A stretch of 64,000 nucleotides of DNA, taken from the NCBI GenBank assembly GCA_964634935.1, contig CAZWJT010000006.1, positions 10,189 through 74,188 of the forward strand, given 5' to 3'. Under the pieces are notes generated by a model. That model had not been told where the DNA came from, did not search any database, and saw only the letters and a list, made by a program, of their open reading frames with translations. Shown piece after piece: positions 1 to 42,000 of the stretch. Source of the DNA: an uncultured Planctomycetia bacterium (lineage in GTDB: Bacteria > Omnitrophota > Gorgyraeia > Duberdicusellales > Duberdicusellaceae). The translations under genes and the position numbers were made by a program. Positions within the stretch are counted from its first letter, which is position 1. Each line of letters starts with the position of its first letter.

Positions 1-3000
1 AAACTACGCACACAGAAAACAGGAAAACTTTGGGTTGTGATTGAAGGATACCATGGGGCTGGGAAGAGTTATGCGGCGGAGCAAGTGAAGGATCGGTTAA
101 TACATCTTGGTTTACATCCTGTAGTTTTGAATTTTGATCTGTCCTGGACAGACCGACAAGAACGCAAGCGCTGGCGAGAAGAGGCGCGTTCTCGAGGGTT
201 GGGGCATGATTATTATGATGCGTTGAGACAGAGTCCTAGGCCAATGCATTGGCGGAAAGCGCATTCCGACCAGATGATAAAACAGATTACAGAGGGTACT
301 GGCTTGGTGACAATAGACGAGTGCTACCAGTTTGATGAAACGGGAAGCGCCACGGGAACAGAAAGCTTATTTCTGAGAGCTGATTCTGTTATTCTTGCTG
401 ATGGTGTTTACGCTTCAATGGTTGCCAAGAAAGATTGGGATCTGCGGATTTTCATCAGCATCGATCATGCGCTCTCCAAGAGCATAGCGATGGTTCGTGA
501 TCAAAAACGGGTTTATCGGAATCCGGAAGATACACGCGCTTTATACGAAGAAGTCTATGAGCCAAGCTATCAGAAGTACGCACGGCTCTATAGTCCCGAA
601 GAGAAAGCTGATATCGTGATGCGCGTGGAAAGAATCGATACACAAGCGATGGCCCCCTTGTGCCCCAGGCTCATTAGGACAAAGGAAGTTATGGTCATTC
701 TTGAATGTACGAATCCGGATTGTTCCTTCCAACAGCCGGCAGTTAGAACAAATGTCTGCCGCGTGTGCGGAAATGACCCAGGGAATATCATTCTTGGTGA
801 TGTCGATTTTCTGTCTTTGATCGAAGAAGGTGAGTCGAGTATGTGGCGTTATAAAAAATTAATGCCAGTAGATCCCAATGCTATCGTGAGCGATGGAGAA
901 GGGAATACCCCTGTTATTTATATGCCGAACGTAAGCGCCATGCTTGGTGTGCATGTGTGGTTTAAGCTTGAAATTGTGAACCCCACCGGGACATTTAAAG
1001 ATCGGGAAGCCTCTTACGTAGTTTCTTTAAGCCGGCAATACGGTCAAGAAAATCTGGTGATGCAATCCACGGGGAATACGGCAATTTCTATTACCCATTA
1101 TGCTGGATTAGCCGGAATTCCTTCCTGGGCTTTTATACCCGAAACAAGTACCTACAAACTTTTCATGCCCGAAAAAAGAAAACCGAATAAAATAATCGCT
1201 GTTCAGGGTCATCCTATCGATGTGAAGAATTTTGCTGAAGATTTCGCGATGCGGTATGGATTTCCTAAAATATCTCCCTTCTATGAACGTTGTGAAGCAA
1301 ACGCAACGCAGGCTTATGAGATTGCCGAAGCGCTTTTACGAAGAAAGCTCCCTGAGCAAGATATTCTCCGGGGCGGCTCCTTCGATTACTATATCCAGAC
1401 GATAGCGGCTGGTATGGGTCCGATTGGTTATTATCTTGCGATGAAACGGCTACGGCAATGGACACAAGGAAAAGTGGCTGTTCCTAAAATTGTGGCGGTA
1501 GAGGTGAGCGAATTTGCGCCTATTCAAGCTGCGTGGGACCGTGATCTTTCAGAAGTTGGCGAAGAAGTAGCAACCCCATACTTTCCTGATCATCCTTTGT
1601 TTGAGCCGACATTATGGACTACGAATATTAGAAAATATTATCCACATTTAAGAAGAATGCTTAAGGACACACACGGAACACTTACCTTAGTTACTCCAGA
1701 AGAGGTAGCTGTTGCGATGTCTGATTTTGGCGTGAAAGAAGAGCTGGAGAGCGTAGGATATAAACTGAGCGCCACTGAAAATGCTTCATTTGTCGGGTTT
1801 ACCGGGATGGTCCATTTAATTCAATCAGGAAATATTCCTCAAGGCAGTAAAATCATCCTCATGCTTACCGGGAAAGGGTTGCACCCACAACACATTCTTG
1901 AAAAGCCGGATTGCATCATCAATCCCCGGGAGCATAAGCCGCAAGATGCAGTTCGCATGAGTTCCTTTGTTGATTCTTCGGCAGTACTGTTCGAAAGCAA
2001 TGCCTTTTTATTTTTAGGAAGCATCGTGCTCGGGTTATTTTTATTGGGTATTTTGAAAACGCTCTCATCCCCGTTGACTTTGCGGGCACTCTATTTCCAT
2101 TCCGTTGCTCCACGCAGATTTTTAGATAACGGCGGTTATGCGGTCGGCAGAAAATTGTTTGGCAGAATGCGCGGCGCGATTAAAAGTATTTTTGGTAAAT
2201 CGTATGCTGCCCAGGCTCCGCCTCAGATTATCATCATCCCCGCATTTCGCTATGCAAAAAGCAAAAAATACTTGCTGCAAATAGCCACCCAAACCGCGAG
2301 AATAACACAAACAAAAATTCCATATTGTCCTTGTGTCACCATAGCACAACCGGTTCCTTTTTCTTCGTTAACCGATCAGATAGGCGGACGCTACGCACGG
2401 GGCAGAAAGCAGTATATTTTACCGAGTGATCCACCGTTTGTTTTTCAAGATTCGCCCGTAGTGGTTCTCACGGATATTGATCTTACCGGGTATGATCGTT
2501 ACGGAGATACAAAGTCATATGTGTTTGGGAGAACATATTTTCGCAAGCGGGTAGTATTTTTATCGACATACCGTCTGGCTAGCTCTGAGCCTGCTGTCGG
2601 TATCGCGCGAAATGTCAAGAATGCGCTTCATGAGTTTGGGCATCTCGTTGGGCTTGATCACTGCTTTTGTCAGGGGTGTGTCATGCGTTTTTCAGTTTTT
2701 CCGGAACAGCTTGACGGAACCAAAGCGGAATTCTGTGATTACTGTTCTCAGAGATTAGATGAACTATTTTCCCAGGGTAAAGCCTGGTCATTCGCATTTG
2801 TTCCTTTTATTTCGTTGTCGATTCTCGGAGTGATTTTTCTTCTCTGTTGTATCCGGGCAGTATTGAAACGACGGAACGTTGATTTCTGTAGCCGCCAGGA
2901 AAAGAACGACGGATATTTATGTTCCAGTTTGCAGCAATTGCGGAAATTAGGACAGAGACCAATAAGCCGACGGACTTTCTTGGGCGTCACAACGGCAGCG

Positions 3001-6000
3001 CTTATCCTCGGAGCCTTCATGAGTTATCGATACGCTCTAGATACTTCTGATGAGCAGGATATCGCGGATGACGACTTGAGATCGTTTCTCCAGAATTTCA
3101 TCGAAGATCTCGCCTCTTCTCAGGATCCTGCGCTTGCAAGCGCGCAGGCGTTTTACGAGCTGGCCGCTTATCAGATGATTGCCCCGGCTACAATTCCGAA
3201 TGCTGAATGTTGTCTTTCCGGTGTTCTTTGGTATGTTCGGCATCATGCGGATGGAACTTCTACGCTTGAATTACGCTTAGTTCTTGATCTGGAGGCATTC
3301 CATTCTCTGATAGTCAAAGCAAAGAAAAATGCCGTCTATAAAGCATTTGCGCGCTCGATAGTGTTGAAAGAAGGCGCGACCATTTTGGATATTCATGAAC
3401 ATCCAGATTTTTATTTTGAGACAAATGCGATACAGAGAAATTTTCCCGCACAGGCTGAAAAAGAAAATACGTTCTATGCCAGAAGCATCGCGGCGCGTTT
3501 TGTCGAGATTGAAGCTATAGGCTACAGGGAGCAGGAAGCGTACCTTACGCGCTCCGGTGTGAATGCAGAAATGCTTGCAGCACTGTGGCGTAGAGAGTCT
3601 GATGAGCGAATTCGTGTCTGTTTGAGCCTGAGCGCAAATATCATCAGGCTTCTCCGGCATAAAGAATTTTTTGATTTACGAATCGGTTTATTTTTAAGCC
3701 ATATTTCCGCGCTCTGGCCAAGTGTTTTTGAAGCATGCAAGATCCGTACCACGGCAGTACAAGAGAACCGGGGTATCGGAACGTTTCGCGGAGAAAAAGA
3801 GCAGTTTTCCTTTTTAGAAGATGCCAAGTATATAGACAGGAAGATCGAGGTTCAGCAATCTTCTTCTCATGATTTAGCGCATACTTCAGGCTGGCCAGTT
3901 GATGTCGGTATCTTTAGCGTTATTTTTGTTGGTATTCTTGTGCTTGCGATCAAGGAATTCATTTTCGGTTTATATTTTTCCACTCCTGTATCGCAGGGTT
4001 CAGCACAAAATACTCCCGCATACCCGTTCGGTATCTCTTCTTTCGAAACCGAAAAAAAATTAGCCGCGGCGCTTTCTGATTTAAATAGGATATATTCCGA
4101 AAAAGGAACAGAAGCTATTTTTGAAAAAGTTTGTGCGAATTTAGAGTTACAGCGTCACATTTCACGTATAATTCGCGCTCAAGACCGGCTTGAAGATACA
4201 AAAGGTTTTTCAGTGGCGCAGGAATGGGCCGAAGAATTTAAACATCATCTTCTTAGGCGGGCAGTCCAAGAATTACAGGGAAGAGACATCTGTATTTTGC
4301 AAATGGAATACGAATTTTCGATGCGTTTTCTCCAGGAATTTAAAGAATATCTTGTGAAGAGCAAAGGATGTAATGAATCTGACGCCATTTATAATACCGG
4401 TGAACTTGCGAAAATACTCATGGCTGGCGGGCTAGGCAGTTTTAAACCTGATTTGGTGCGAGGCTGGTATTCGGTACTGCGTGATCATTGGGGGGATATC
4501 GAAGCGCGCCGGCGTCTCCATGTTTTTGGCGTATTATATTGCGAAGCAATCAAAGGGCAAGGGAGAATTTTGACAAAAGGAGCAGTACAGTCAGAAAACA
4601 TCATTGATTTGGCCAGGCAGTCCCTATTCAAGATAAAAACCTATCACGGCTTGGAGCTTAATCTGCATGGGGTAGGGAGAGTCGATGTTGAGATATATAT
4701 GAATCCCTATTCGGAATTAAATGAATATTGGCTCTATTGTCCTCAGGTATTCCATGAGGCGTATTGTGGGAATTCCGACGACGACTTCCGGGCAATTCAA
4801 ACACTACTCTACCGGAAGGTAGTGCTCCAGTTTTTGAAAGAGAGGGCCAATGAAGGAGCAATGGGGCGGCGTTTGTTATTTTCGACAAGTGAAGTTAACA
4901 CAACCTTGGCTATTCCAACGGTGGTGAATGATTCATTCCGGACAGATCAAGCTTTTGGCGATATCGTTGTTCACCACTATAACCATACGATCGTTCCGGC
5001 TGGGATGCCGCGGTATCATTGGTATATGTTCGATTTATTGAAGATTGCCGATGAATTCAGGGATGCTATTCGCGATGGGTTCGTCGATTTAGTGAGAATT
5101 ACTGGCCAGGTGAGTCATTTTATTACCGGTTGTTCAAGCGAGCATACACGTATTTTACGTGAGAAGATATTTTGTGAGTTTTCCGGAAAAGTAGTTGAGG
5201 ACGACATTTTTGGCAATAGCGAAGGCTCAGATATCGAACGCTGGCAAGGAATAGGCATCCAAGGAGTGTGCCAGCGATATATGGCCCGAGAGAAAGTTTA
5301 TACCCATACTCAATTATTTAACCACCTTGAAATGAATGCTCGGTTAAAAGCAAGGTTTATCGGAGATTTATTGAGAGTCAAGCGCCAACAGAAACAGCGG
5401 TTTATCGCTGAGCTATTTTTCGGTACTTTCGGCGCTATGAATATTACCGAGGCAGAACTGGTAGCCTTGAAAGTTGATTTTATCAATATGCCATTCTTTA
5501 CCTTTGTCCGGCGTTTTGTCGATTATAAGTGCGGCGATCTTATTGTTGATATCCTTTCCGATCCTGGTTACCGTGAACGGATTATCAAGGCTGGAGCGGT
5601 TATTTTCATCGGAGGAAGAAAATTTGGTTCATTTGCAGATTTGCAGCAATACAGAATTCAGGAGTTGATTAAACAAGATCCGCGGCTGCGGTACCATATT
5701 GTATTTGTTTCGGACCATAACGTGTTTACTTCTTGGATAATTCAACAAGGCGTTGACTTCGGCGGTATGCTTTCTTGGAAAGGAATGGAGGCTGGCCCAA
5801 CCAGCATTAGTAATTCTGGTCAGAATGGGTCTCCAACCATAGCTTCTCCAGACGGGGTGATTCCTGAGCGGCTCAAGCAAATATCCCGCTCTTCCCAGGG
5901 AGTTATTACGGGCGGAACAGGGTACTCTGTGGAATATGGCCAAGAACTTTCTTCTTCCGGAGAGATTAAACCCGATAGAGAATCTTTGGTGCGGCGTATT

Positions 6001-9000
6001 GAGGAAGCTTGTCAGGATTATTTTCATCCGGAACGGTATGGTATCGCTGCATTGAATGTGTTGAGAATGACTACTACACAGGGGGATATTCGGAATCAAG
6101 CCCGAGGATTAATTAAAATTTGGGGAGAACAAATTTTTCTTCTGCGCGCAACCAAAAAAACACAGCAAAAGAAAGGTACTCAAGCATCCGCATCGTATGA
6201 TGGGATATTTTCTGTTCCAATTCTTATCGGAATCGTCGTTGCTGTTATCTTTTTCTCGAAGGTTTTTGTTTACGTTGTTCAATTGCTGGAAACCGTCTCA
6301 AAAAAGAAGATTTTCCAAGAAGAATCAGAACGGTCGCTGTGGAGTTTTCAAAAAAGGTTCCGGTCTACCTTCCGTGGCTGGCGGGGGCCGGAGTCCGCCA
6401 CAGCGGCCGTATTTTTTGAAACTGTTTTTGAGATTGGTATGCTTCTGGGTATTTTATTCTTGATGTTGTATTTTAAGACTGCTCTAACGAGTGATGATGT
6501 AGACAACCCAGGAGAATTTTGTAATCAGGCTTCTGGCGAAAAAGCCCCCGACCCTCAGGTTCCGCTTGACGCAATCTTTTCCGACACACCGGAATTTTCC
6601 CGTTGTTTTGATCGGATTTGGACTGAGCTTGCGAAGGCTTCAGGATCTCTTGAGGGGCTGCGAGCAATGGATATGGAAGAATTTGCCAAAAGGCTTGGCG
6701 GAAAGAAACTTATAACACTGACGAAAATATTTAAACGTGCCAAAAAGAGTGTTCCGTTTGGTATTTTTATCTCTCCCCGTGTATTTGAGCATATCATTAC
6801 GATCAGAAGATTCATCTGTGACCATCCAACAGATCCAATGGTGCGACATTTTGATTCAACACTGCGTAGTCTGGCGCAGGTTCAAGAGATTGATGCTCCC
6901 GGCTGGTATTATAATCCAATCAAGGGATGCACGAAGGCCTATGTTTTTCATGAATTTCTTGAGTCGAGTTTTTATGAAAGCGGAGTTATTGATGTTCATT
7001 TCGAATATTTTCTCAATGATCTGCATCCCGGAGTTCTCCTCGGGGAATTGGCCTTTTCGGCGTTGCTCGGCAAAGAGTGTTTTGAGCAATCCCGGGCAAT
7101 TATAGAAAGACGTCTCACAACTCTGGTTGAATTTGGCGAGGAACTTGAGCGTGCGCAAGGAATGAAACCGTGGGATAACATTAGATTTGATACAGGTAAA
7201 CCTTTAAGAATATTTTTAGGCTATTCTGCGGATGAGTATCATCGTTATGCCATACAATTGTGGAGAAAAGCGGCAGGGTTTTCTGTGCAACGAGAAAATT
7301 CGCAATGTATCGCATTTTTACCTGGGTGGATAACCATCTTTGGAATTTCTTTTGGGCTTCTTGTTCTTTTCGTCGCAGCAATTTTCTACCTGTGGCGGCG
7401 GATTAAACAAGAAGCAGTCTCTTTCCAGAAGATTGGCGGAACCGTGTATGTTCAGGGTGAGCATTTTCACGCTTTTACCGTGATTCGCGGCATTGATTTT
7501 GTTCCACACGTTTTTAGGCCGGCTTGTGGAGGAGTTGTTTTTCAGCGAGTAGACCGAGGTTTTGATCGCGCTACCCTGGAAGAAGCTGCTTCGTATGCGC
7601 GGATGCTTGCTGAGCACACGGATACTGTTGCAGCGCTTTGGAATACATATCTGCAAGGTGCGGCCACGGTTATCATATCCGATGGCTTACAGACAAAAGA
7701 GAAAATTTTATATCTTTGGGCTCGAGTCCTTGCGGAGCAGGGAATTCTAGGTTGGCAGTACATTGTTACTTCGGAACTCGGCACTGCCGAAGAAGATATG
7801 GCGTTCATCGCTGATGTTGCATACGCTACGGGGTTGAAGCGATATTTAGAAAGTGGACGTTTGAGCGAGGCAGATAAGCAAATAATCCGTTTCCATCTGC
7901 GCAAAAAGAGCTGGCATAATGTTCCAATTGAATACTTATGGGATGCGAATCTTGTTCTTCCAGCCGCCGGTTGTCCGGAAAAGTTTGGCGGACATCCGCC
8001 ATTTCGCTGGGATTTGGGGGGATTGAGCGTAGTTTCCGGAATACAGACAATACTTTGGTCAACAAAACAAAATTTTCCTGCGAACATTCTCATCGATGGG
8101 TTTGGATTTACCGGCCGCTCTATTGCCCGCTCCATTATTAAGCGTATCCCCGATGAAGTACGGATTAGCGGTATTGCACAACACAACGAAGCAGTTTTTT
8201 CTTCAGAAGGCATCGATAGTTTTAATCTGCTTCACTATATTAGCGCGCGGGAAAAAGGATTAGCTTCATCCGAGCTCGGTATTCTTGCCCGCCGGGAAAA
8301 ATCTCTGATGCCACGGCAGAAATTACTGAGACAAAATACGGATATTCTTATTTTGGCAAACCGGGATCACGAACTGACCTTTGAAGAGGTTAAATCGTTC
8401 AATGCGAAGATCGTGATCGTTGCGATACCGGGTGTTTTAAGTGTTGCCCATATGGATTGGCTGCATCGCCAAGGAGTTTTTTGTGTTTCGTCAATCTGGT
8501 TAAACGGCGGAATTCTTTTTGGAGCGCGGGAAGAACTCTTGCATAAATTGGTTGGTCGCGAACGTCTGCATGTTCGTGATATGCGCCGGCATGTCGAAAG
8601 CGGCGTCCGGGAAGTAGCGGTAACCGTAATGTTTGAAGAGCTTGACCGATGCAAATCCCATAGCGTATCGAGTGTTGTTGAAATGGGGCGTACAATGGCA
8701 AGTCAAATACGTTCCCATGAATTTGCTTTCTGGGATGCCATTCGGAATTCCGCTTCATCTCAGGGAGTTTCTTTGGAAGCGCTTGCTCAATCTCAGGATA
8801 CAGAGAAGGTAGTATCCGTAATTTCAGATCGGGCTTCTCCAGAATTAGCCCCTGTAACCCAATTGGCACTAGCAAACTATCGGGACGGAAGAAACGCCGT
8901 ATTCGGACTTTTAAGTGCGGTTCTGGAGATCGCCCGGCAACGGGTTATTTATAATGAGCATTCGGCAGAACGTGCCCTCCAGGCAATCAATTCAGATGAT

Positions 9001-12000
9001 GATATGTTGCAGCGTATTGCTGCTTTTCATCTGGGCAGGTTGCGTGTTCCTCAAGCAACCAGTGCTTTGCTTGAGAAGCTGGAGAATTCTCCGGTTTCCC
9101 ATGTCCGGGCTAACTGCGCGCATGCTTTAGGGTTTATTTGCCATGTTACCAGCGATAGCGCGACTCGGAAGAAAATTATCCGTGGTTTGGTTGCTGCTTT
9201 GGGCGATTCAAAGCATAAAGTTCTTGAGTGGGCGCAATGGGCGCTTTCAATTAATGGCGTAGGCGAGAAAGAATTAATGGATATTGCTGAAGAGATAAAA
9301 CGCGATGAAATTGATCCACAGGTAGCCGTTGAAAATACCATTGGTCATCGCGAGGTTACCGATAAAAGCCTTGGTGATTTATTTCTGGAAATGGCCGGTA
9401 TCAGTACTTTTATCCAAGATGATGTGCGAGCGCGCGAGTACCACCGCCATGCGAGATATTATTACCTGCGTGCTGGGGAAAAATCCGGGCCGCTTACCGT
9501 AAGAAGCCAGCTTTCTTTAGCCAGAAATTTTGAGGCTTCGGGGAATATCTACATGGCGTTGCGTTCCTATATGCAACTTCTTAATCCGAGGTCATTTCTT
9601 CGTATCTATGCGCCCCCGACAGCCCGGAAAATTGCTGGTGATTTGGAATGGCTCCACGAATACCGGCGTATCGCCATTGAATCGATGCTTGATATCTACT
9701 ACCCGCACAGCCAAGACGTAAACGAGCTGGTCGCGGCAAAACTTGATGACATTATTCCTGTCGCGCGGCGCTCGTTCTCCCCGAAAGCATCTTGGCAGAA
9801 ATCTTCGATACCGCTTTTTGTGCTCTATGATGTGGAATTGAGACGTTACCAAATGCCTTATCTCGGTTTATTGCTGCTTTTTAGTTCAGATATATTTGCT
9901 CAAAGGCGATACCGGAATGTTCAATCTTTTATCACCCAAGCATTAAGCCATAAGGCTCTCACTGATGAAGACGGGATTCTTTTGCCTGAAAATAGGATTA
10001 TTGCAATCTTAAACTGTCGGCTCAGCGCATTTATCAATATGAACAAAAGAGAGCGCCGTATCGCCATGGAATTACTGAGGGAAACGGATATTATTCATTC
10101 ACCGCACCATGTCCTTTCTCTGATATACGCCGGGATGCGCTTTTGCTATAGAACCGTGCATCATAAACAATTCTTTGCTTGCGGCGCCGGCGTATATACT
10201 GCTTGTGGCAACGTAGACGATAATGTTACCAGCGCAGTACGATCTGAAATCACGCGTGCCCGGAGCCAGGGACGGGATAAAGCCTATTCTGAATTAACCG
10301 ATCAAGACTTACCGGCTCATATCAAGGAACATCTGCGTTCTCTTTTTTCTTCTTTTGGAAATGTGCGCGTTCTTATCCCGGTATCCCACGGATACCAGCG
10401 TGCTCCGCCGTATCTCTGGTACGGTTCAGGAGAGAGATTTGTTGCCGCGTGTGTTTTCGAGAACAAAATCTACCTTCCGCTTCGTTTAATCATCTTGCTC
10501 AGTGTTACCAAGAACGAACCCCTACTTGCTAAAATTATTGCCCACGAGAATAACCATTTGTATCGTAAGAGCGAGGATGTTTCTGAGGCAGTGCAGTTGG
10601 CAGCAGCATTACAACAGGCATGGCATGAGGATTCGGAGAATTGGCTGCGCCACAGTATCGGCGTCGAATTAGCAGTCAGAGACCATGGTGCTTCTGATGA
10701 AACACGGATTGTCCGGAAAGGTTCTTTTGATGATGTGACCAGAGACATCCCGCGGTATGCTGCTTTGGGTATCCGGGCCATACTGCTTTTAGATGTTCTG
10801 GAGCACGCTTACGAGGGTGTTTTTGATGTGCTTGATCCACTCCGCGTTAATCCTGAATTGGGCAATGAACAAAAGCTTGTCAATCTTTTACATGTTGCAC
10901 ATCAACATGGTTTACGAGTGATCCTCCCAGGTGTATTTAATCATGTGTCACGCAGAAGTCCCCTGTGTTCTTTGCATCCCGATTGGTTTATCCGCGATGC
11001 AGGAGGACAGATTGTTTCAGCAACAGATAAGCGGGGTGCCTGGGAATGGAAGTCGCTTGCCCAATTTAATCTTGCTCATTCAGAAGTCCGGTCATTTATC
11101 CTGCAGGTTGCAGAATATTGGATAACGATGGGATTTGACGGTTTTTGGCTTGATGCGGCGGGCAGTCTTCTTTCCCGGAATATTGAGCAAAACTGGGGGA
11201 TACGCGTTTTCGGCGAAGAAATTCTTACTCAACTTATCCACCGTACGCGTTTACTCAATTCTTCAGTGCGTTTTATTGCCGAGTCATTTGATCCACGCGA
11301 TCGGTGTCGGCTAGAAGAGCTTGGTGCCGATTTAACTATGGATTGGGAAGTAATAGAAGCGCTGATTGCTGCAATGCGTTATGATTCGCCTGCGCGGATT
11401 CTGGAAGTTTTACTGCGCTCCGGAGAGATACAGCTTGAACGCAGAGCGTTTCATCGGATTAACCATGATAAATCGGCCTATCAGGATAAGCAGCTCGGTC
11501 TCACGAGAGAGGAAATTATTTTTGCCATGGAATTTCTCGCTTCACTACCTGGAGCTTTCTGGTTTTTTGAAGGAGAAATAGAAGGGAAAAGGACATATTA
11601 CTATCATTTTGACGCAGTGAAGCCGGTTGATGGAGCGCTTGTCGACAGCAAATTAGCAGATTTTTATGAACGTTTTATTCCGATAATCACGTGTGATATT
11701 TTACGGAAAGGTTCATTTCATCCTTTGGGATTGAAGGTTGTTTCACCTCAGGATGTTCCGGTTTGCGCGTTCGCCCGTGAATATCAAGGGAAATTTATTG
11801 TTGTGGCTCTCAATCCAACACAGAGAACATCTGATGATGGGAAGGCTTGGCTTTATCCGGATATCTCTTTTCTTCTCCCGCAGCATGGTGTCCGTTACCG
11901 CGTGGATAATTTGCTCACTGGTGAAGAATTCCCCCAACTTTCCTCCGAAACCATGCGTGTTCAAGGTTTACCCATTGGGTTAGCCAAAGACGAGATACAA

Positions 12001-33000: not shown

Positions 33001-36000
33001 GCCAAATACGCACTTGGTATAAACTACAGCAGAATTTTTCAGGCAAGCTTACCTTTCATGCTCGCCGCAGCCGTTGCCGGCCTGAGCATGAATTATACTT
33101 TTTCGTTTGCCGTGTGTTTGGTAGCACTCGGAATAGCTTGCGTCTTAATCGTCAGCGCCCTGCTGCCTTTTGTCGTGCTTTCATATCGAGTAAACAGGCC
33201 GTTACGTGGGTTATTGTTTCCGTACCTTGACAAGGAATATACAGTTGCCCGGGAAGATAGAACGAAGATTCTGGATAATCCGGGTTACAGAAAATATTAT
33301 GCTTTGGCACGGATGATATCGCTTGGAATCTGTATGGCCCCAGCTTTCGTTATCCCTGCTCTGACATTGTTCCATACAAGCGGTTTTATTGCGCAAGACA
33401 TTGTGTTGCTCATGAGCGGACTGAGCATCGGTTCATTATTTTTTATGGCCGGGGCATTCCTTGATTTTAAACGTATGCGTCATGAATGGAGAGGATTAAA
33501 CATAGCCGGTATCTACAAGTACTATCGCCATCCGACATATCTTGCTTGGAAAATGGTGGGTATTTGGTCGTTCATAGTTCTCCCTGGTATAGTTGGTTTT
33601 ATTCTTACCTTGACGATTATTTTTATTAACGAGATTGAGTCATTAGAGGAAAATATTTCTTTATGGAGGCGTTATGGCCAAGCATATGAGAACTATGCGC
33701 GCAGTACGCCGCTCTTCTCAGAACTTATTTTTCATACGTCAGGGCTCTTCGGGCGCATTCTTTGGGGTACTCAAAAGAATGCGTGTTTTAGGAAGTCCGA
33801 TGATGGTTTTCTCCGGCGCAGGAGAGAAAACAATAGCGTTTCCAACGGCTTATTTTTGAGCGCCAATATGGTTGTGTTTTTATGCGCCGCATTTCTTGCG
33901 GTTTTTCTTCCGGCAGTGCAGCACTCTTTTTCTCGGATTCCCAGAACATACCGCCGGTCTGATTATGAAGGATATACGGATGAGGAGCTTTTGGAGATGC
34001 TTGAAATTATTCAGAGGCGGTTTGAGCGCAATCGTTTCCGGAGTCTCGGGCCAGATGAGGAAGCGGGAGCAAATGTGTTTCATATGAAAGCATTGCGCAA
34101 GCTCAATGATGGATTTTTTGAATATCTATCAAAGTATAGACCGTACCTTCTCTCTAAGTATTTTTCGCCTCGCCGGGTAGACCAAGGTGTCTTTCAAGAG
34201 ACGATGGCATCGGTTATCCAAGAGGCAGAAGCGCTCTATCGGCAGTATGAGGGGCGTGGTGGTCAATTCTATCTTATGTCTGATGACGAGCTGCTGAGCC
34301 GGCTTGATCAAGCCAGGAGAAAATTTGACTCTGAGGAAGCGTTGGTTGCAAAGCAAGAGCAGAGAAGCCCACGCTTTTTTTCATTGTCTCGTTTAAGGGA
34401 TAGCGATGCGAAATTTGCAGTTTTTTTAAGGAAGCAAAGGCCGGATTTATACCGAGATTATATGGTTGGTTTACGGGGGAATTACGGCTATCGGCAAATA
34501 ATAACGCGGTGGGGGAGAGGCGATTGTGCCCGCGACAAGATAATGCGGGAAGCGGCTCAAATGTTCTATCAAGGCAAAGATAGCCGCGGGAAAAGATATA
34601 CCGTGGCGGATTTAGTTTATTGGGGAGGATCTAGGGGCATTCGACGCGCTTACCAAGGTTTTTTAAAGGCTGTAATTCGAGAATATGGCGGTGATTATTT
34701 TGCCCGTGAAGGAAGTTCCTATGCTCAAAATATTTCTGACAGGATGGCCTGGGCAAATATGTGGTCTGCTGTTGAGGTTGATTACGATTTTGATATCCTT
34801 GAGCGGGCCAAGCTAAAAACCAGCCCAGTCTGTAATTTTTCGAGTATCCAAGATACGTCTGTGATTCGGAAGCTCTTGCAGATTCCAGACGCACAAGAAG
34901 CTTTGAGTCTCGATGATGTATGGAGCGAAGCTGGTTTAACTGCGCAAGAAAAAGAGCTTCTCCTTGTTTATTTTTCCCTGCACGATGCAAGCGCTCCTCT
35001 TCTTGCAGCAGTAGGAAACCATTTTGGTATTCATAACCGCGAAAGCGTTCGCCAAAAGAAAGAAATAGCCATCGCGAAAATCAGATTTGCGTTCATTGCC
35101 CTGGGGATACACTTTGTAGTTTCCCCGGAAGAATCCGTCACGCAGCAGCGGTTATTCGCAAAAGCATACGCAGCAAAGAGGGTTTTGGTGTTTTCTGATC
35201 TTGCCCATGGTCATACCGCGAAGGCAATAGCGATGTTGCACAAATTCAGCGTCGCGGAAACAAACCTTTTACGTGATTTTTACTGGCATAATAGAGAATT
35301 TGTTAGAAGACATAAAGGCTATTATCATTTTTCTCCTGTAAGACATCCTCTTGGTTTAGCCAGCGGAGCAGTTTCTATGCTCGCTCAAACGGATATTTTT
35401 TCTGACAACCAGCCGCATCAGTCCCAGATTTTTCCCCTAGAGCTCCAAAGCGCATTTGACTCGATTATTCCAATCATGTTGATTTTTATCGCATCCGTTG
35501 CTGTGGTTGCGTTTTTGATTCATCTGCTTATGCATCATCGGAATATTTCCAGCCAAAAGAAAGATATGTTTGAAAATATGATGACCATGGCATTCTTGTC
35601 TGTTCCCGCAATAGGTTTACCTGGCACAATCTTTCTTGGTCTTTTTGAAGGTCCTTTTGCGGAGAAACTTTGCGCGGGGAGCTTCCTTCTTTGTTTGGGA
35701 ATCGCAGCGGTCTATACGCTCTATAATTTATTTGAGGATTACGCCGAGAGAGGGCATGGGTTGAGCGGGAAAAAAATGGGAATTTTTCTGCTCGCATCCG
35801 CTCTAGCTTTTCTAGGGTTTCAATACAGCCATTTTTCCTGTAACAAGGATATACTATCCGGATCTTTTCTGCTTGATGCTCCCCAGGAAACGGTTTTCTC
35901 GTCCACTCATCAGAAAATTCAGCAAACTGTTCCCGTAGATTTTGCTCCCGGGGTATTCTTGAGCGCGCTGTTTCTTGTGTTTTTAGTCTTACTTCTGGTT

Positions 36001-39000
36001 CAGCCGGTTTATGGTGCAGAACACAGAGGTTCATTGGGGGGAGCGTTTCTTGGCCACAATGATAAGCATGCATCAAGCCTGGATATCCATAAGCTTGAAG
36101 CGGTAGTAAGAAACTTTGGTTTTCCGACCTGTTTAGCCAACGCATGCTTGCTTATTTACCTCATACGATTGTACGGCGAGCAAGCTGATTTGGGGGGGAT
36201 GTTTCGCAGAGGAGAAGATCATCCTTTCCAATATGTTGTGTTGACTCAAAAATGGGGAGAGCGGGATATAATGCCTTATGATGAAGATTGCGATGATTAT
36301 GAACGCACAGAAAAAGTTCATGGAGATGATTACGACCGGGGCATAGCTTCCTTAAGGCGCAGCGGTTATCTTGCTCGTGCAGAAGAAGAGCTATCCAGCC
36401 ACGCAGTAAATGAGAAAGAAATCACCAGTCTTATTAATCCTGTTTTTTCCCAACAATCTGGTTATTGCGCGGTGGTTATCTTGGTTGCAATGATGCTATC
36501 AGTAGTACCTGTATTCTTTGCTATGCCCGGGGCAAAGGCACTGGCCGAACAAATTCGCTTGACCACATTATCCCAACAACCGTTGGTAGCTCAGGAACCA
36601 CTGAATCACAATAGGTGTTGGCCGATGATTCAGGCTTGTATTGAAAAGAACGGAAGTGAAAACGCCCTAAAAATGAAAAGAGGTATTGAATTATTAGGTT
36701 TGGGTGCTCTGTGGAAACAGGAGATTTTTGAAGACCTCAGAGCGCTTGAGTGTGTTGAGGAGATACGCTGGAACAATTTTGTGCTTTCTAAGGAAGCGGC
36801 TTCTCGAGCCATATTCAGTGACCATTTTTGGATTGAAATAAAACTTAGGGGTGACAAAAAATGGTATGTGCTTGATAGGACGATTGGTCAGTTCGCGGAT
36901 GTTAAAGTGTTTATTTCGATGGGGGGGATGATGTATCTGCCGCGCATTCTGACGAAATATTTCATGAAAAAACAAGTGATCACCAAAGACAAAGCATTTT
37001 TAGGTATTTTTTCCCAGTATGATAAAGCCAAAGGCTTTTATGGGCTTAAGAAAGACTATCCGTTCCAGGGAAGACCGGAATACAACGGATGTGCAGATAA
37101 AAAAGCGAATAGTCAAGGATTGTCTCAAGGATCAAATCGTGCTGCTCGGAAAAAACATACTCAGGGATCCGCGTTCAATATATCCGGTAACTTACCCATT
37201 ATTGTTGTTTCTCTTTCAGTAATATTTTTTGTGCTTTCAACTTTGGGCATAGGAACCATCATGCATGCCAGGTCTCCAACGTATTTCGCAAAATTCAAGC
37301 ATGCAAAAGAAGCCAGAATTATTCATCGTTCCGCTTGTTTTCCTCGTAATGACTTGGATGATATGATGCGAGCTGCCCGTAAGATTATTTCCATGAGCAA
37401 GAAAAGGGAGATAGGCGCCGATCTCGCCGATAGATATGTCAGTGATTTATATGTGAGGTTTCTTTATTTTGATGCCGGACTCGAGAAATCACGCCAGCGC
37501 TATCCAGTGGCGGCGATGATTGTTGACGAGGATGGATTTGTTGTTTCTAAGGGCAGACGGTTTACCTACGGCGGGATGAGGGATTTCATTCATTCCGAGC
37601 GAGATGCCGTAATGAATGCTTCGCGAGAAACCTGCGCAAATTTTTCTCGTTGCACCCTTGTTACAACAATGGAGCCGTGTTTTCATTGCTCACAGCTTCT
37701 CAACCGTTGTCGTTTTCAGAGCGTGGTTATTGGAAGTCTCGAGAATAATATTGCAATGTTTGGCAACAGCATCCAAGTTATCAATAACGGGTATACAAAA
37801 ATTATCCCGGTTGCGTTTCGTGTCACACAACTGCTGTGTCGTAGCGGGTATCGTGACAGAAATATTCTCTGGCAAGAGCGGGCTCTTCTGTATCCGATGA
37901 ATAGGCTGCGGGAACATATGTATTTTCTTCTTGGCTATTTTCTCTATCGCTATTTTGGAATTCTACCAGGAGGGTTTATCCGTAAAGCAAGGAAGCGCCA
38001 TGCGTTTGGCTGTGTTATTTTGGCGTTGCGCGAGGCATTTAGAACAGGCAATCCGAGCCAAGTTGGATTTCTTTCTTCGTTTCTATTGCACTCAGTGGCC
38101 CCTGTTTACAATGTGAAGGGCCTTGGGCTTATGTTTATGCCTTATTATGAATGGCTTCAAAAGCACCTAACCGATAAATATCATGACAGATTGAATCATG
38201 TCCCGTTTGCTGTTGTGTTGATTGGCAACAGTCAGAACAGATGTCGTGCTCGCCAATTGCTTGACGGTCAACGCGCCCTTGGGAGGGAGAATATCTGGGA
38301 ATTGACCGGCATTGATACAGACGAGGATGTGTATTTAAAAACAGATGATTCAGTTATGCTCTTAGCATGTCAGCGTGATTTAAAATTGCTCTGCTGCCCC
38401 CATATTGCTTCTGTGGCAAAAATACTTGCGCGAGGATTAACCTTTTTAAGGGAAACAAAAAAATCTGTTGATAGGAGTAAAAAGAAAAACGCACAAAGCA
38501 ATTTGTATCGCTCGCACAATCTGGGTTTTTTCCCCGGTAGTGGTGTTATTTTATTGTTGATGGTGCTGGGTGTTTTTTCGTTGGCGGTAAGCGCAAAAGG
38601 CGCCAGGCTGATTTATGCAGGCAATGATCTTTTTACCCCGGTTTCCGCGGTAAAGAACCATATTGTCGCTTTGGTGCGAAACGGACAGAACGAAGCATTG
38701 GCATTGCGCTGGGATCTGCGTTTTGTGCACTATCAGGAATTTATCAAACATGCCGCAGCAATCAACGAAGCAATCATTGAATTGCTCAAAGACCCTGATT
38801 TTTGTTTGGATCATCCTGGGTTTATCAAACAGGCACTACGCACCAGGATTGAGATGATGGACCACGATGTTGTTCCGGTGAACAAAGGCGGATATATCGC
38901 TGGGCTTTCCAGGAGCGGGAAGGTAGCGATAAAGAAAGCAAGGGTTGGAATATCACGCAAGAGAATGAGTGAGCGCATCCTACGCGTACTTGCGCGGTTA

Positions 39001-42000
39001 ATGGCACCTCGCGAAGATTGGTTTTTATCTTTGCCGGAAAGCACAATCGCTCCTTACCGTGTGAGCGTATATAAGAAAATGTGTTTTTTACCAACGCTTG
39101 GCTGTTCAGTGCAGTGTGATCACTGTTATGTCTCCGCACCTTTCTGCGTGCATTCTTTGCCCTATCCGTGGATGAGCCAAGTTGTAAACACGCAGGCTTG
39201 CCGTGGTTTTATCTGGCAGTTAGGGGATTATTGGCGGGATTATTACGATTGGGTATTTATGAAATCTGCCCCGCATCTTGTTCGGGATATGTTTTCGTTA
39301 AAGTCTTCACTTCCGGTATTACGTCAAACAATGAGCAGTGGCGGCATCAGGCCAGGATCCGTGACCGCACATTATCTCGGAAATCAGAACGGATTTTTCG
39401 GCAAACACAGCCCATGGCATCAGTTCCAATTTAGCATTACTCCAAGCGTTGAAACAAGAATTTTGGGCAGACGCTACAATGAATTTTTACAGTATAATGC
39501 GGGAATTTTAAAATGGCTTGAATATCTTGGATGTACGGTATCATGCACGCATTACCGTATACAAAGAGATAGTGAGACATGGCCATTTGATGCCGATCTT
39601 ATACGGCAGATAACTGGTATTTTTTGTAAGGATCATAAGGTCGAAATGAGCGGACGTCTCAAACAACTGGAAAAGCGAGGGATTGGTTTTACGTGCAGAG
39701 GCAATACATTTATTGATCCTTTGGCACCCCATGATTATAAACTTACCGAAGATGTGCTTCTCGCCGATGGAAGCATGATTGATTCCAATTTTTTAGTCAA
39801 TGATGACGGTCAATCAAAATACAGATCGCTTGCTCGGGCAGCAGGCCTGAAATTATGCCGCGACTGTTCAATAACCTGCGCCAAGCGAGAAAGTTGTTTA
39901 CGGGAACAAGGGTTAACTGAGGATGGCGGTCTCCGCCAAGAATGCATTTTTAGTGGTTTTGTCCCTAGCATGGCCATTTTTGGGATTTTTCTTATCGGAT
40001 TTTTTATATTTTTTACCCCTTTGCGTAATAGAACACGAGTTTCTCGCCGGAACGTCGAGCCGTATGTGCGTTATTCACATATGACGCAGCAGAAATTTCG
40101 CGCTATGGTTTTACAGCTGAAAGATTGGCAGTTAAACCAGAGCGAACAAAAATCATTAGAGCGCTTTCTCAATATTTTCCCGCTGCTGGAATCAGTGAAC
40201 CGTGAAATGCGCATGAATACGCGATTTCCTCGTTTATGTCAATGGGCAAGTCAGAGGCTAGGCGAAGTATTGAAAGAGCATCAAATTCCTTTTAGGATCG
40301 TAATGAAACGAAACTTTATCCGCAAGCAAAGTTCGTTATTCCCGAGCGATGCAATAATTTATACAACCTGGATTGACGATGAAGAAGATACCCATATGCA
40401 TCAATATCCGATCATCGAAGTAGCTGGGATGGAATTCATTGTTGATATAACCGCTGATCAATTCGTATTCCAAGTTCATGAGCAATATGGAAAGTATAAA
40501 AATCTTGGGATATTTATTATTCCCGTTACTGCATTGCAAGAAAATTCTTGGCCGTATTCCGGAGGCGATGAATTCGCAGTGCGATTTTCTTCTTGCGCTT
40601 CCGTCGTTCTATCCATCCAGAGCATTAGTTTGGTTTTCTTGTTGTTCGGGGTATTGGTTTTGTGCGTAACGTATAAGGGCGTTGTGGCCAAGCTTTTTAA
40701 GCAGCACACGGAAAGCTATAGGGTGAGAATCGCAACTGAATTTTCTGATATCATACAGATAAGAAACGTGCGTTGGAATAAGTTCGGACCAAGAGGAAAA
40801 CAATATATTAATTCATGGCGCGATACACTTGATAGATATGATACCCAAGGATTAGCTTTGAACTTAGTGGTTGAAAGAAAAGGCCGCTTTCCTTTTCGGC
40901 CATGGACGTGTGTTGTAGCAACTGCCCGGCTTCTGTTTTACCGCGAAACTGATTTACTTCCAGCAGAGCAGACTTACCCTGCAGAATTTGCCCAACTCAA
41001 GACTAATTCGTCTGAGCATATTGCAGAAGTATCCCGATTGGCGAGCATCGCCGAGAAAGATACTCTTAAAGTTATCTTAGAGCTTTATCGATTTATATTC
41101 TATATTGCAAACGCCATCGGGATAAAAACATTAGTGATGGTGCATAATCCAGAGGATCAAGAATTCTATGCGGGTAATCTCTTTCCATTCCGTGTGATCG
41201 CTGATTGCAGTCAAGCGCGATACCTTGGTTTTTCTTCAGAACCACATCACGCAAATCGTGGCCTTCCGGCGCAGTTGTTGGCCCTTGATTTACATGGTGT
41301 TTATAAAGCTTCACAAGAAGTTGCCCATAAGAATGGGAGTAAAACCAGGAGTCAAAGAACACACGGATATTTTTACCATAAATGGAATTTTGCCATTGAG
41401 GATTGTCCAAAACTCGGCTGTCAGCTGGCAAGGGCAGTACGAGATGGAGTTATTCCTGAAAGCATCTGGAATGCGTATCGTTCGCAAGTCGTTCCGACTG
41501 ATACCTGGGCTCGGATGTTTACCTTGTCGATGCGCGGGAGTGCTGAAGCAGAACTAAAACGTATGTTGTTGGTGCATATACCGCGTGCGACAACGCCCAT
41601 GAATACAAAAGGAGTGGAAGATTATCTTACCGTGTGTGTTACTACAGGTCCACCTCTTTGGGTGTTGCTTGTGCTCTGTGCTATGGCCGCCGTATTCTTC
41701 CAAAATGTCTTTGCTGTTGACGATGGCTTTTCAGGAGCCGAGGAGTCCGATCAGCCTATCGATTCTCCCAAAAGGTCAGGGGCGAGCGCGTTTTTGTGGC
41801 TTCAGATCCGAGAGCCCACTGAGCTTTACCATACAACACACCAAGGTGTTTCTCATTTTCTCTATCGTGTAAGCTCAAGAGGAGCTATGCCTATGTCAGA
41901 AATTACTATTTCCAATGATTGGGCAGGAGGGTTGCGAGAGGGTAAAGAATCAATTTCTGCTCGTGCCGTTTCTTCCATAGCTGCGTATGATTTCTTTTTT

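Follow-up and report, generated by a model that had tools for sequence, protein, structure and literature searches.

Organization of the locus

The window, by which we mean the whole 64-kb stretch of DNA that was analysed, is occupied by one open reading frame (ORF) of 21,333 codons in frame +1, which contains no stop codon and is open at both edges of the window, and each of the other five frames contains between 800 and 1,388 stops. The strong transmembrane (TM) helices of the encoded protein occur at a density of roughly one per 450 aa. All the residues quoted in an initial annotation of this DNA are present where it placed them in frame +1, and its description of hydrolase-type domains strung on a membrane-threaded giant protein agrees with the single ORF, the helices and the profile matches.

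Profile searches, including Pfam and NCBIfam, recognised modules of at least 20 unrelated families, of which three to five are hydrolase-type. The rest consists of cofactor-dependent, cytoplasm-type enzymes and a sigma factor, and includes threonine-synthase-like PLP enzymes, a full glutamate dehydrogenase, an SF1 helicase, a dCMP deaminase, radical-SAM modules, methyltransferases, a GNAT/FeeM module and an RpoD-like sigma module that retains regions 2.4 and 4.2. The motifs TFKDR, GGGKGG, GPPGTGKT, HSE..PCFHC and CxxxCxxC (four times) are intact in these modules. All embedded domains score far below equivalog cut-offs, and some 75% of the ORF could be assigned to no family, which leaves room for unrecognised wall-degrading or adhesion modules.

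Table 1. Features of the giant ORF (nucleotide positions in the window; protein positions in aa)
Feature	Position (nt)	Strand	Protein position and remarks
Single uninterrupted frame	1..63999	+	~47 strong TM helices
M54 cassette	2059..2790	+	687-930, flanked by TM 666-686 and TM 931-951
Weak similarity to alpha-glucan phosphorylase or GT-B fold	5080..5979	+	1694-1993
Conserved orphan module with HExxH	10177..10749	+	3393-3583; HENNH at nt 10543-10557
GH13-like (alpha-amylase family) domain	10720..11595	+	3574-3865
Trypsin-fold cassette	29680..30894	+	TM 9894-9914, S1 domain 10075-10233, TM 10278-10298
TG1 orphan module	36577..37146	+	12193-12382 (C12206, H12275, D12292), between TM 12156 and TM 12398
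TG2 orphan module	40006..40581	+	13336-13527 (C13413, H13467, D13482), between TM 13321 and TM 13538
HExxH, EHERLHEKHP	43411..43425	+	14471; absent from the initial annotation
LspA-like (Peptidase_A8, signal peptidase II) membrane domain	49045..49449	+	16349-16483
HExxH, HEGLH	63601..63615	+	21201; motif scan

Hydrolase-type domains

The M54 cassette adjoins a PLP enzyme and carries the catalytic half of an archaemetzincin (aa 821-920), with the motif HEFGHLVGLDH-C-x4-C-x-M at nt 2629-2685 and CDYC at nt 2734-2745. The archaemetzincin-like HExxHxxGxxH-CxxxxCxM signature proposed initially is borne out both by the Pfam Peptidase_M54 profile (E 4.8e-14, 53.2 bits, cut-off 24.4) and by alignment to the archaemetzincin structures 3zvs and 2x7m (E 5e-14), in which the long motif, C-x4-C-x-M and the downstream CDYC are kept, and with them both zinc sites, every zinc ligand and the Met-turn. 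The module shares HExxHxxGxxH, the Met-turn and the Cys4 second zinc site with the M54 peptidases AmzA of Archaeoglobus fulgidus (3zvs) and Methanopyrus kandleri (2x7m), but archaemetzincins are free proteins of ~160-200 aa, whereas here the module is set between two TM helices of a giant protein, and the family profile is left unmatched over its N-terminal half. The spacer before the CxxC, usually 17 residues in archaemetzincins, has 16 residues here. The NCBIfam M54 subfamily gives 73 bits, below its cut-off of 145, and the NCBIfam 'non-proteolytic archaemetzincin-like' family scores weakly.

The trypsin-fold cassette lies downstream of the SF1 helicase and upstream of a CheR-like methyltransferase. 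Its S1 domain is matched by Trypsin_2 (E 5e-12, 47 bits, cut-off 27.6), and its His10094, Asp10138 and Ser10219 fall on the triad of Thermotoga maritima HtrA (1l1j) in the alignment, which confirms the proposed trypsin-like His/Asp/Ser site. Trypsin_2, the aligned triad and GxSGGP are common to HtrA/DegP and MarP (Rv3671c) of the S1C family, and MarP is likewise tethered by TM helices. In contrast to these proteases, the domain found here has no PDZ domain and scores 27.7 bits, far under the equivalog cut-off of 250, and there is one TM helix on each side instead of four N-terminal helices.

The GH13-like domain is real, with matches to Pfam Alpha-amylase (E 1.3e-10, 41.5 bits, cut-off 22) and to neopullulanase 2z1k (E 2.5e-15), but from its sequence its catalytic competence is doubtful. 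Regions I (PGVFNH), II (GFWLDAA) and IV (NHD) are recognisable, and the nucleophile Asp in region II and the region IV NHD, with the transition-state Asp, are aligned and retained, as in neopullulanases and cyclomaltodextrinases, which are the best matches, and in alpha-amylases. In contrast to these enzymes, a Trp takes the place of the family-invariant Arg that lies two positions ahead of the nucleophile, in all the alignments shown, and region I has a Pro for its Asp; the alignment of the region III Glu is ambiguous. The GH13 regions I-IV with a catalytic Asp/Glu/Asp that had been claimed are borne out as to the domain, the nucleophile and NHD. The strong match is confined to the N-terminal half, the barrel shows weak similarity over its second half (E 0.003), and no C-terminal domain was detected.

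GH13 is an alpha-glucan family rather than one of wall hydrolases, which matches the glycogen/sugar theme reported for Omnitrophota giants. Within ~5 kb of this domain, with two strong TM helices in between, there is a weak similarity to alpha-glucan phosphorylases or GT-B folds (E 3e-5, 22.8 bits, under the Pfam cut-off of 27; 4bqe, E 1e-4), in which the PLP-lysine position is unconserved. One related long protein is annotated as a 4-alpha-glucanotransferase.

A further hydrolase-type module, the LspA-like domain, lies beyond the 2330-40470 range that had been described initially (E 1.4e-6, 29 bits, cut-off 25). It has no PDB match, and two simple patterns for the LspA motifs matched nothing, which does not make its catalytic motifs absent.

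The catalytic residues are found in alignments for M54 (zinc ligands) and S1 (triad), and in part for GH13. This bears on the idea that the hydrolase-like modules are captured folds reused for binding or as scaffolds without catalysis, as are the GH13-like domains of rBAT and 4F2hc. The substitutions and half-domain match of GH13, the match of M54 to the C-terminal half of its profile, the weak score of the 'non-proteolytic' family and the low scores of every embedded domain relative to equivalogs would all agree with it, but the complete M54 zinc sites and Met-turn, the intact S1 triad, the GH13 nucleophile and transition-state Asp, and the catalytic motifs kept by the other embedded enzymes make it highly improbable.

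Orphan modules and bare HExxH motifs

Two transglutaminase-like Cys/His/Asp cores, here TG1 and TG2, had also been proposed. Their likeness to transglutaminase-like or papain-like cysteine peptidases (PF01841, clan CA) is at the motif level: the Cys is at a predicted helix start and the Asp lies 15-17 residues past the His, in the pairs H12275-D12292 of TG1 and H13467-D13482 of TG2, the latter being conserved. However, neither module matches Transglut_core or has any other above-threshold Pfam match, even at E ≤ 10, and the sole match is a sub-threshold one of TG1 to the papain-like Tox-PLDMTX (E 0.17 in one search and 0.018 in another). Nothing was retrieved from the PDB with single sequences or profiles, the AlphaFold models have a pLDDT of 40-44, and at this pLDDT the TG2 model gave no match in Foldseek. 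Both are conserved, with homologous modules in other long proteins: the only homologue found for TG1, P0027 (31% identity), has a Phe at the proposed Cys position, whereas that of TG2, P0019 (27% identity), keeps Cys, His and Asp. The assignment as transglutaminase cores is not confirmed, having neither profile, solved-structure nor usable fold support; TG1 and TG2 are orphan modules, probably lineage-specific. They show no detectable relationship to each other, and the tail D-x-T-x-x-Q-F is common to both and occurs nowhere else in the window.

The window contains four HExxH motifs including that of M54, with ~0.85 expected by chance (P ~0.06 for the three besides M54), so that as a count the bare motifs are at chance level. 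Two of these three are nevertheless conserved in homologous modules. The HENNH at aa 3515, whose orphan module immediately precedes GH13 with no TM helix between them and has a faint DUF2268 match (E 0.14) as its sole family match, is conserved as HEFRH in the closest relative of the window, L001, and the motif at aa 14471 has a similar segment, EHEQVHQDHP, in P0008 (E 4e-4, small database). HEGLH at aa 21201 has neither homologue nor family match, which is consistent with chance.

Relationship to other giant proteins

No close relative of the window sequence was found in the collections searched, and the best, L001, is also an uninterrupted ORF. The two share at least ten blocks with 30-69% identity in a different order; most of these are bordered on at least one side by a TM helix in both proteins, two of them on both sides. 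The hydrolases described above are absent from the 7,155 aa of L001 compared, and the M54, GH13 and trypsin cassettes have no homologue in the other giants searched. The enzymes of L001 and the other relatives are of different kinds (HD, HAD, Rce1-like, ATP-grasp, GT9 and kinase ATPases). The protein is built as a series of cassettes, each a soluble module flanked by TM helices, which are acquired, dropped and rearranged between relatives.

The defining content of the Archaeovorin class of Omnitrophota giants (West-Roberts et al. 2023, bioRxiv 10.1101/2023.11.21.568195) is glycosyltransferases, methyltransferases, glycosyl hydrolases, peptidases and SAM enzymes, and a class of 'multi-enzyme metabolic cluster' giants is described (Nielsen & Lui 2026, bioRxiv 10.64898/2026.06.07.730766); the most frequent Pfams in Omnitrophota giants are starch synthase, GT1 and phosphoglucomutase. 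Such giants resemble the window in the length of their ORFs, which reach tens of thousands of codons, in having about one TM helix per 450 aa, and in a divergent content of methyltransferases, radical-SAM, GNAT, HEAT repeats, glycosyl hydrolase/transferase, peptidase and signal-peptidase-II modules; the nearest relatives of the repeated radical-SAM-like module of the window are Omnitrophota MAG proteins. In contrast to these giants, the 21,333-aa segment has no SecA-DEAD, C39, S8, NUDIX or dockerin. The passages of the two preprints that were consulted do not name M54, MarP/HtrA-like S1, a GH13 with Arg replaced by Trp, a full glutamate dehydrogenase or an RpoD-like sigma among the families of these classes, and no mention of sigma, amylase, trypsin or glutamate dehydrogenase was found in the two texts.

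Topology and possible processing

By simple alternation of TM helices, M54, the trypsin-like domain and TG1 are placed on the opposite face from their cofactor-dependent neighbours, which, if true, would fit an outward-facing function. The rule is unreliable, because it also divides the radical-SAM and the PLP modules between the two faces. K/R follow 37 of the 47 helices and D/E precede 29, so that most share the same polarity, but over 15-residue flanks the bias (19 versus 13) is not significant.

In an alternative reading, the protein would be a self-processing polyprotein: its embedded proteases (M54, the trypsin-fold and LspA-like domains, and perhaps the Cys/His/Asp module TG2) would cut the chain at or near TM boundaries, as in viral polyproteins, so that enzyme cassettes and sigma domain were released or separately anchored. 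With strict alternation, the SAM, PLP and acyl-carrier modules cannot all be kept on the same side, and a shared charge polarity is impossible for an uncut chain; moreover, several catalytic classes of protease occur within one ORF, and the trypsin-fold domain has TM helices on both sides. In relatives, short recurring motifs (SSSPV nine times and RRSPSG six times) or lipoprotein signal peptides within the chain (LxGGC, five times) lie between the domains, and cleavage by C39 and S8 peptidases has been proposed by West-Roberts et al. 2023 (bioRxiv 10.1101/2023.11.21.568195). However, no repeated candidate cleavage motif, lipobox for the LspA-like module, or C39 or S8 domain was found within the window, and the hydrolase cassettes are missing from the compared part of L001; together with the non-significant flank bias, this makes self-processing, taken as a whole, unlikely.

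Function of the hydrolase cassettes

In one of the readings of the initial annotation, the hydrolases would be an outward-facing kit for degrading the envelope of prey or host, part of an adhesion or attack organelle; processing of the giant protein itself had been offered there as an alternative. Relatives of HtrA and MarP are extracytoplasmic, and M54 beside a PLP enzyme and the trypsin-like domain between helicase and CheR-like modules, with one TM helix on each side, would by alternation both lie opposite cytoplasm-type modules. Archaemetzincins, however, are small peptidases that are not known to act on cell-wall material. In addition, cell walls are a substrate of none of the confirmed families, GH13 included, and GH13 lacks its invariant Arg here; the topology rules give contradictory results, and the hydrolases are a small minority amid cytoplasm-type enzymes; no lysozyme, amidase, NlpC/P60, M23, lectin, dockerin, Ig-like or other adhesion domain was found by profile searches in the 21,333 aa. 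Although an adhesion/attack role is a published hypothesis for Omnitrophota giants, and the flanks of other giants are described as rich in T2SS and GH2 genes, the attack reading is weakly supported and seems quite improbable.

We lean instead, by a modest degree, towards reading the window as an internal segment of a multi-pass giant of at least 21,333 aa, of the Archaeovorin/multi-enzyme class, in which the hydrolases are separate mosaic cassettes and not a coordinated kit: an intact-looking archaemetzincin type, a MarP/HtrA-like trypsin fold, a GH13-like domain with an atypical active site and an LspA-like domain. Each cassette would most likely perform the function of its family, tethered at the membrane. 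The archaemetzincin-type zinc peptidase and the MarP/HtrA-like serine protease would process or check peptides or proteins, and the GH13-like domain would handle or bind alpha-glucan, in keeping with the sugar-metabolism theme of such giants.

One open frame divided by transmembrane helices

Frame +1 contains no stop in its 21,333 codons, compared with 800-1,388 stops in each of the other five frames, and no ORF longer than 231 aa is found outside this reading. Since the frame is open throughout and runs off both ends, the window is an inner segment of a single giant gene. Recoded stops were ruled out, since frame +1 lacks all three stop codons, which the other frames have in large numbers. 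GC content (0.43-0.47) and GC skew are both even along the whole window. A hydropathy scan identified about 47 strong transmembrane (TM) helices, approximately one per 450 aa, plus 15-20 weaker candidates. The domains that could be recognised in the window ORF are listed in the table, and they account for only about one quarter of its length.

Features of the window ORF, with the positions of recognised domains, paralogous modules and example TM helices
Feature	Position (aa)	Position (nt)	Strand	Basis
Threonine-synthase-like PLP enzyme	296-624		+	profile match
M54 peptidase	821-920		+	profile match
Alpha-glucan-phosphorylase / GT-B-like segment, weak	1694-1993		+	profile match
HEAT repeats	2992-3082		+	profile match
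GH13-like domain	3574-3865		+	profile match
Paralogous pair, first copy	4397-4567	13189-13701		self-comparison
Glutamate dehydrogenase, full-length, GdhA-type	7019-7432	21055-22296	+	383 bits
SF1 helicase, IGHMBP2/Upf1-like	9340-9838		+	profile match
Trypsin-like protease	10075-10233		+	profile match
CheR-like methyltransferase	10434-10604		+	profile match
Paralogous pair, second copy	10827-10996	32479-32988		self-comparison
ICMT-like membrane methyltransferase	11167-11236	33499-33708	+	profile match
TG1	12193-12382			orphan module
dCMP deaminase	12498-12578		+	profile match
Radical-SAM-like module 1		38536-40095		self-comparison
TG2	13336-13527			orphan module
FeeM-like N-acyl synthase	13636-13743		+	profile match
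Radical-SAM-like module 2		44323-45762		self-comparison
Second PLP enzyme (PALP2)	15296-15638		+	profile match
LspA-like Peptidase_A8 (signal peptidase II)	16349-16483	49045-49449	+	E 1.4e-6, slightly over Pfam cut-off
RpoD-like sigma-70, regions 1.2, 2 and 4	17843-18134	53527-54402	+	profile match
Methyltransferase	18457-18641		+	profile match
Radical-SAM-like module 3		56572-58206		self-comparison
Radical SAM	19628-19702		+	profile match
GNAT	20483-20568		+	profile match
Strong TM helices, examples		12055-12117, 29680-29742, 39961-40023	+	hydropathy scan

The key motifs of the non-hydrolase modules are intact (TFKDR, GGGKGG, GYGNVG, GPPGTGKT, HSE..PCFHC, and sigma regions 2.4 and 4.2), and judged by these motifs the modules do not look like decayed fragments. 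The glutamate dehydrogenase, which includes both GGGKGG and GYGNVG, covers profile positions 10-413 of 419 and starts about 50 aa past the TM helix at aa 6951-6971. In the sigma-70 segment, region 2.4 reads YASWWIRQAI and region 4.2 LTRERVRQIE, and a strong TM helix begins 50 aa past region 4; a membrane-tethered sigma factor would need release in order to act. The LspA-like module has four TM helices, and a PDB search with this region gave no match. The ICMT-like (isoprenylcysteine O-methyltransferase) match sits within a cluster of seven TM helices. At the start of the window (nt 1-120), a P-loop-like GYHGAGKS at aa 16-23 suggests a further NTPase/kinase module, cut by the window edge. In chunk coordinates, exactly 15,000 aa separate the PALP domains of the two PLP enzymes, a spacing that raised the possibility of an assembly duplication; this was rejected, as self-BLAST finds no similarity between them.

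Hydrolase-type domains

The initial annotation had read this ORF as carrying a hydrolase toolkit, made of an M54 metzincin, a GH13 glycosidase, a trypsin-like protease, two transglutaminase-like cores and bare HExxH motifs. All the signature residues that it quoted are at the positions it gave, and three of its five signature classes hold (M54, the GH13 domain and the trypsin-like protease), whereas the transglutaminase cores are not confirmed.

The archaemetzincin assignment is borne out by Pfam Peptidase_M54 (E 4.8e-14, 53.2 bits against a cut-off of 24.4), with a match that covers the catalytic C-terminal half only (profile positions 93-193 of 194), and by alignment to three solved archaemetzincins, 3zvs, 4axq and 2x7m (E ~5e-14). 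The zinc-binding motif and Met-turn, HEFGHLVGLDH...CVM (HExxHxxGxxH), line up position by position with 3zvs and 4axq; both C-x4-C-x-M and the distal CxxC are retained, and the second structural Cys4 zinc site is present and aligned (CFCQGC and CDYC, with a spacer of 16 residues). The NCBIfam subfamily model gives 73.2 bits and does not reach its cut-off of 145. No close relative of the M54 cassette was found in the metagenome contig collection, and a word-index homologue search over aa 777-5776 gave no match at a threshold of 1e-8, which was too strict.

The trypsin-like domain is confirmed by Trypsin_2 (E 5e-12, 47-51 bits against 27.6), and its triad of H10094, D10138 and S10219 is in the family order and aligns with that of HtrA 1l1j. 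The top NCBIfam names are MarP and DegP, each far under its cut-off. HtrA/DegP proper has one or two C-terminal PDZ domains, whereas the window domain has no PDZ match and is followed by a TM helix 45 aa downstream. A word-index homologue search over aa 9851-10650 found no match.

For GH13 the domain stands and the activity is doubtful. Pfam PF00128 (Alpha-amylase) matches at E 1.3e-10 (41.5 bits against 22; profile positions 16-193 of 446), PDB matches reach E 2.5e-15 (neopullulanase 2z1k), and the top NCBIfam model is cyclomaltodextrinase. The nucleophile Asp is kept, with GFWLDAA aligned to the GxRLD of region II, and so is the transition-state Asp of region IV, in a weak alignment of INHD to TNHD. 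Two residues upstream of the nucleophile, Trp replaces Arg in the alignments to 2z1k, 1wza, 2wc7, 6y9t and 9xvi; to our knowledge, this Arg is among the few strictly invariant residues of the family. In region I, Pro stands in place of the Asp; the barrel shows only weak similarity in its second half; and the acid/base Glu of region III is ambiguous, FIAESFD offering a plausible strand-end Glu while HMMER places the Glu of 1wza GEVW on a Ser with low posterior confidence. The active site of the GH13-like domain is atypical. A weak GT-B/phosphorylase-like segment lies within about 5 kb, with two strong TM helices in between, and together the two fit the alpha-glucan theme of these giants. Beside this atypical site stand the two proteases, M54 and trypsin-like, which are intact-looking, and a non-catalytic reuse of the hydrolase folds is in our view very doubtful.

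Neither Pfam, PDB nor fold comparison supports the two transglutaminase-like cores, here TG1 (C12206, H12275, D12292) and TG2 (C13413, H13467, D13482). PF01841 (Transglut_core) matches neither even at E<=10, and the sole Pfam match, of TG1 to the papain-like Tox-PLDMTX, is under the cut-off (E 0.018). PDB searches were empty, whether run with a single sequence or with a profile of two, and the AlphaFold single-sequence models are unusable (pLDDT 43.6 and 40.2). Foldseek on the TG2 model, a comparison that was meaningless, had no match at E<=0.001. With hhalign, the relationship between TG1 and TG2 is not detectable (probability 2%). Both have a Cys at a predicted helix start, followed by a His and, 15-17 residues later, by D-x-T-x-x-Q-F, a tail that occurs only at these two sites in 21,333 aa. 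The one TG1 homologue, in the related long protein P0027 (31% identity, E 3e-22), keeps the His and Asp and has Phe at the proposed Cys; the one TG2 homologue, in P0019 (27% identity, E 4e-13), keeps all three residues, and a word-index homologue search with TG2 gave no match. As far as sequence comparison goes, TG1 and TG2 are orphan modules, conserved in other long proteins; TG2 may be a Cys/His/Asp enzyme, and TG1 is probably not a cysteine enzyme.

The bare HExxH motifs occur at chance level (four HExxH in the window against about 0.85 expected, or three without that of M54, P ~0.06), and none of the three was matched to any known peptidase family by profile search, but two are conserved in relatives. 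The motif at aa 3515 lies inside a module of about 190 aa that is conserved, with the motif kept (HENNH vs HEFRH), in L001, the closest relative of the window ORF, and for a motif at aa 14471, missed initially, P0008 offers a comparable segment, EHExxHxxHP. A homologue search with that at aa 21201 gave no match.

Relatives and cassette shuffling

Self-comparison of the ORF revealed three paralogous modules of about 500 aa with the CxxxCxxC radical-SAM motif, 25-44% identical in pairs (BLAST). They share the motif GCSxQCDHCY and a C-terminal CxxCxxxC, and an invariant GL[ST]xxGG closes each of them, directly ahead of the TM helix that follows. A profile of the three window modules found only 37 proteins of this rare family among 1.84 billion representatives; many of these are long fragments, and those named are Candidatus Omnitrophota MAG proteins. 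In one related long protein, P0001, the copy of this module is adjoined by an Rce1-like CAAX protease (aa 752-843); no motif of the CPBP (CAAX-protease) type was found in the window.

The same profile, scanned against genomes, found L001 on contig CAZRVK010000003.1 (281 kb). Its MAG is labelled uncultured Planctomycetales, and the best module relatives of the window ORF are named Candidatus Omnitrophota. The L001 segment of 21.5 kb (L001:2-21466) is again a single open frame, of 7,155 codons, and has at least ten blocks in common with the window, at 30-69% identity and in a different order, such as L001 2888-3800 with window 12405-13317 (62%) and L001 5712-6169 with window 15235-15695 (61%). 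For most blocks, at least one of the two ends falls at a TM helix in L001 and the window alike, and for two blocks this holds for both ends, which looks like a shuffling of TM-bounded cassettes. Within its 7,155 aa, L001 has nothing homologous to the cassettes of M54, GH13-catalytic, trypsin-like, TG1 or TG2 type, and an HD domain, not GH13, comes after its HExxH module. Further relatives carry HEAT repeats, methyltransferases, an Rce1-like protease, HAD, ATP-grasp, GT9 and kinase ATPases. The picture suggested by these comparisons is of a shuffled mosaic with variable cargo, not of a conserved hydrolase set. Neither shuffling, cassette order nor boundary motifs were mentioned in the searched text of the two giant-gene preprints cited below.

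An internal pair of paralogous modules in the window (34% identical, E 1e-24), without a family assignment, also has a third copy in L001, at aa 5080-5221.

Among the related long proteins P0014, P0003, P0005, P0013, P0035 and P0032, some have their domains divided by short recurrent motifs, namely SSSP[VI] (SSSPV nine times, SSSPI four times), RRSPS(G) (six times), SASPL and SSSPL. Others have internal lipoprotein signal peptides, L-x-G-G-C (five in P0035), with a second TM helix after each. These boundary motifs are possible "punctuation", serving as linkers or for cleavage. In the window, no short motif recurs at boundaries and none of the punctuation motifs of the relatives occurs; nor does it have internal lipoboxes for its LspA-like module, such as are present in P0035 and P0032.

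Membrane topology and possible processing

Two strong TM helices enclose each of the small cassettes (196-363 aa) that hold M54, the trypsin-like domain, TG1 and TG2, and the GH13-like domain shares a TM-free stretch of 1,556 aa with the HEAT repeats and the HExxH module. One TM helix lies between M54 and the PLP enzyme, one between TG1 and the downstream deaminase, and one on either side of the trypsin-like domain, which is placed between the helicase and the CheR-like domain; from GH13 to the glutamate dehydrogenase there are seven strong helices. If simple helix alternation and cytoplasmic cofactor enzymes are assumed, several hydrolases fall on the opposite face. Single strong TM helices also separate, in succession, the deaminase, radical-SAM module 1, TG2, FeeM, a radical-SAM-like domain, radical-SAM module 2 and PALP2, and likewise the methyltransferase, radical-SAM module 3 and the radical SAM domain. 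Because these runs are split by single helices, the alternation rule breaks down here, putting SAM-, PLP- and acyl-carrier-dependent modules on both faces and so giving impossible locations.

Counting outward from each strong TM helix, the nearest charged residue on the downstream side is K/R in 37 of 47 cases and that on the upstream side is D/E in 29 of 47; among isolated helices the counts are 30 and 24 of 34. Given this uniform polarity, most helices look like anchors of the same orientation. The net-charge bias across 15-residue TM flanks is not significant, and an in/out assignment by a TopPred-like scan with charge-bias dynamic programming was discarded as unstable and implausible, placing for example the helicase and sigma outside. 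"Highly unlikely" predicted localisations are also reported in the literature (West-Roberts et al. 2023, bioRxiv 10.1101/2023.11.21.568195). As a test of separate cassette translation, Shine-Dalgarno-like motifs with an in-frame start were sought at TM boundaries, where they are not enriched.

Both the TM polarity and the parity paradox would be accounted for by a self-processing polyprotein, in which the embedded proteases cut the giant chain. Such processing is echoed by the SSSPV, RRSPSG and internal lipoprotein signal peptides of the relatives, but a repeated cleavage motif is missing from the window, and we regard it as rather unlikely. Also unlikely, in our estimate, is a cellular polyprotein whose TM-delimited cassettes are cut at their boundaries by M54, S1, the LspA-like aspartic peptidase and possibly TG2. 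Cleavage would then leave each enzyme and the sigma factor as a separately anchored membrane protein of the same orientation, which would explain the acidic-TM-basic polarity, the failure of alternation to keep the cofactor modules on one face, and the differing punctuation marks of the relatives. If this were true, cassette shuffling would be an easy route to evolve an enzyme set.

On balance, we favour a reading of the hydrolase signatures as separate cassettes within a multi-enzyme mosaic; at the membrane, each probably acts in the manner typical of its family.

Comparison with published giant proteins

Of the two preprints, one defines "Archaeovorin" giants by their glycosyltransferases, methyltransferases, glycosyl hydrolases, peptidases, SAM methylases and NUDIX domains, and proposes that they degrade prey walls and may cleave themselves through C39 and S8 peptidases (West-Roberts et al. 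2023). The other describes, under the name "multi-enzyme metabolic cluster", a class whose members have many TM helices and in which the sugar-metabolism Pfams starch synthase, GT1 and phosphoglucomutase are commonest, together with methyltransferase, GNAT and radical-SAM, and signal peptidase II is among the scattered domains (Nielsen & Lui 2026, bioRxiv 10.64898/2026.06.07.730766). The window shares with these Omnitrophota giants an ORF of >10,000 aa, many TM helices and the mix of methyltransferase, SAM, glycosyl-enzyme and peptidase domains; profile searches found no SecA domain within it. Since the window fits this published class, hydrolase-type domains in such giants are already known in kind, and the particular families found here are new details, a modest extension of the two preprints.

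For the function of giant Omnitrophota proteins, attack on prey walls is the main published idea. The initial interpretation of the hydrolases as an envelope-attack toolkit is supported as regards hydrolase-type domains on a TM-threaded giant, and not as regards a coordinated wall-attack kit. Lysozyme, amidase, NlpC/P60, M23, LysM, lectin, dockerin, Ig-like and other wall-directed or adhesion families gave no match at E<=0.01 across the whole window, though this is not proof, given the small share of the ORF that recognised domains cover. We consider an envelope-attack kit quite unlikely. The recognisable hydrolases here are not wall enzymes, and most recognisable modules are of cytoplasmic type and keep their motifs, a full glutamate dehydrogenase and an RpoD-like sigma among them, which argues against an attack organelle as the main function of such giants. 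Cassette shuffling, uniform TM polarity and alternative boundary motifs provide testable handles for distinguishing a single chain from a processed polyprotein.
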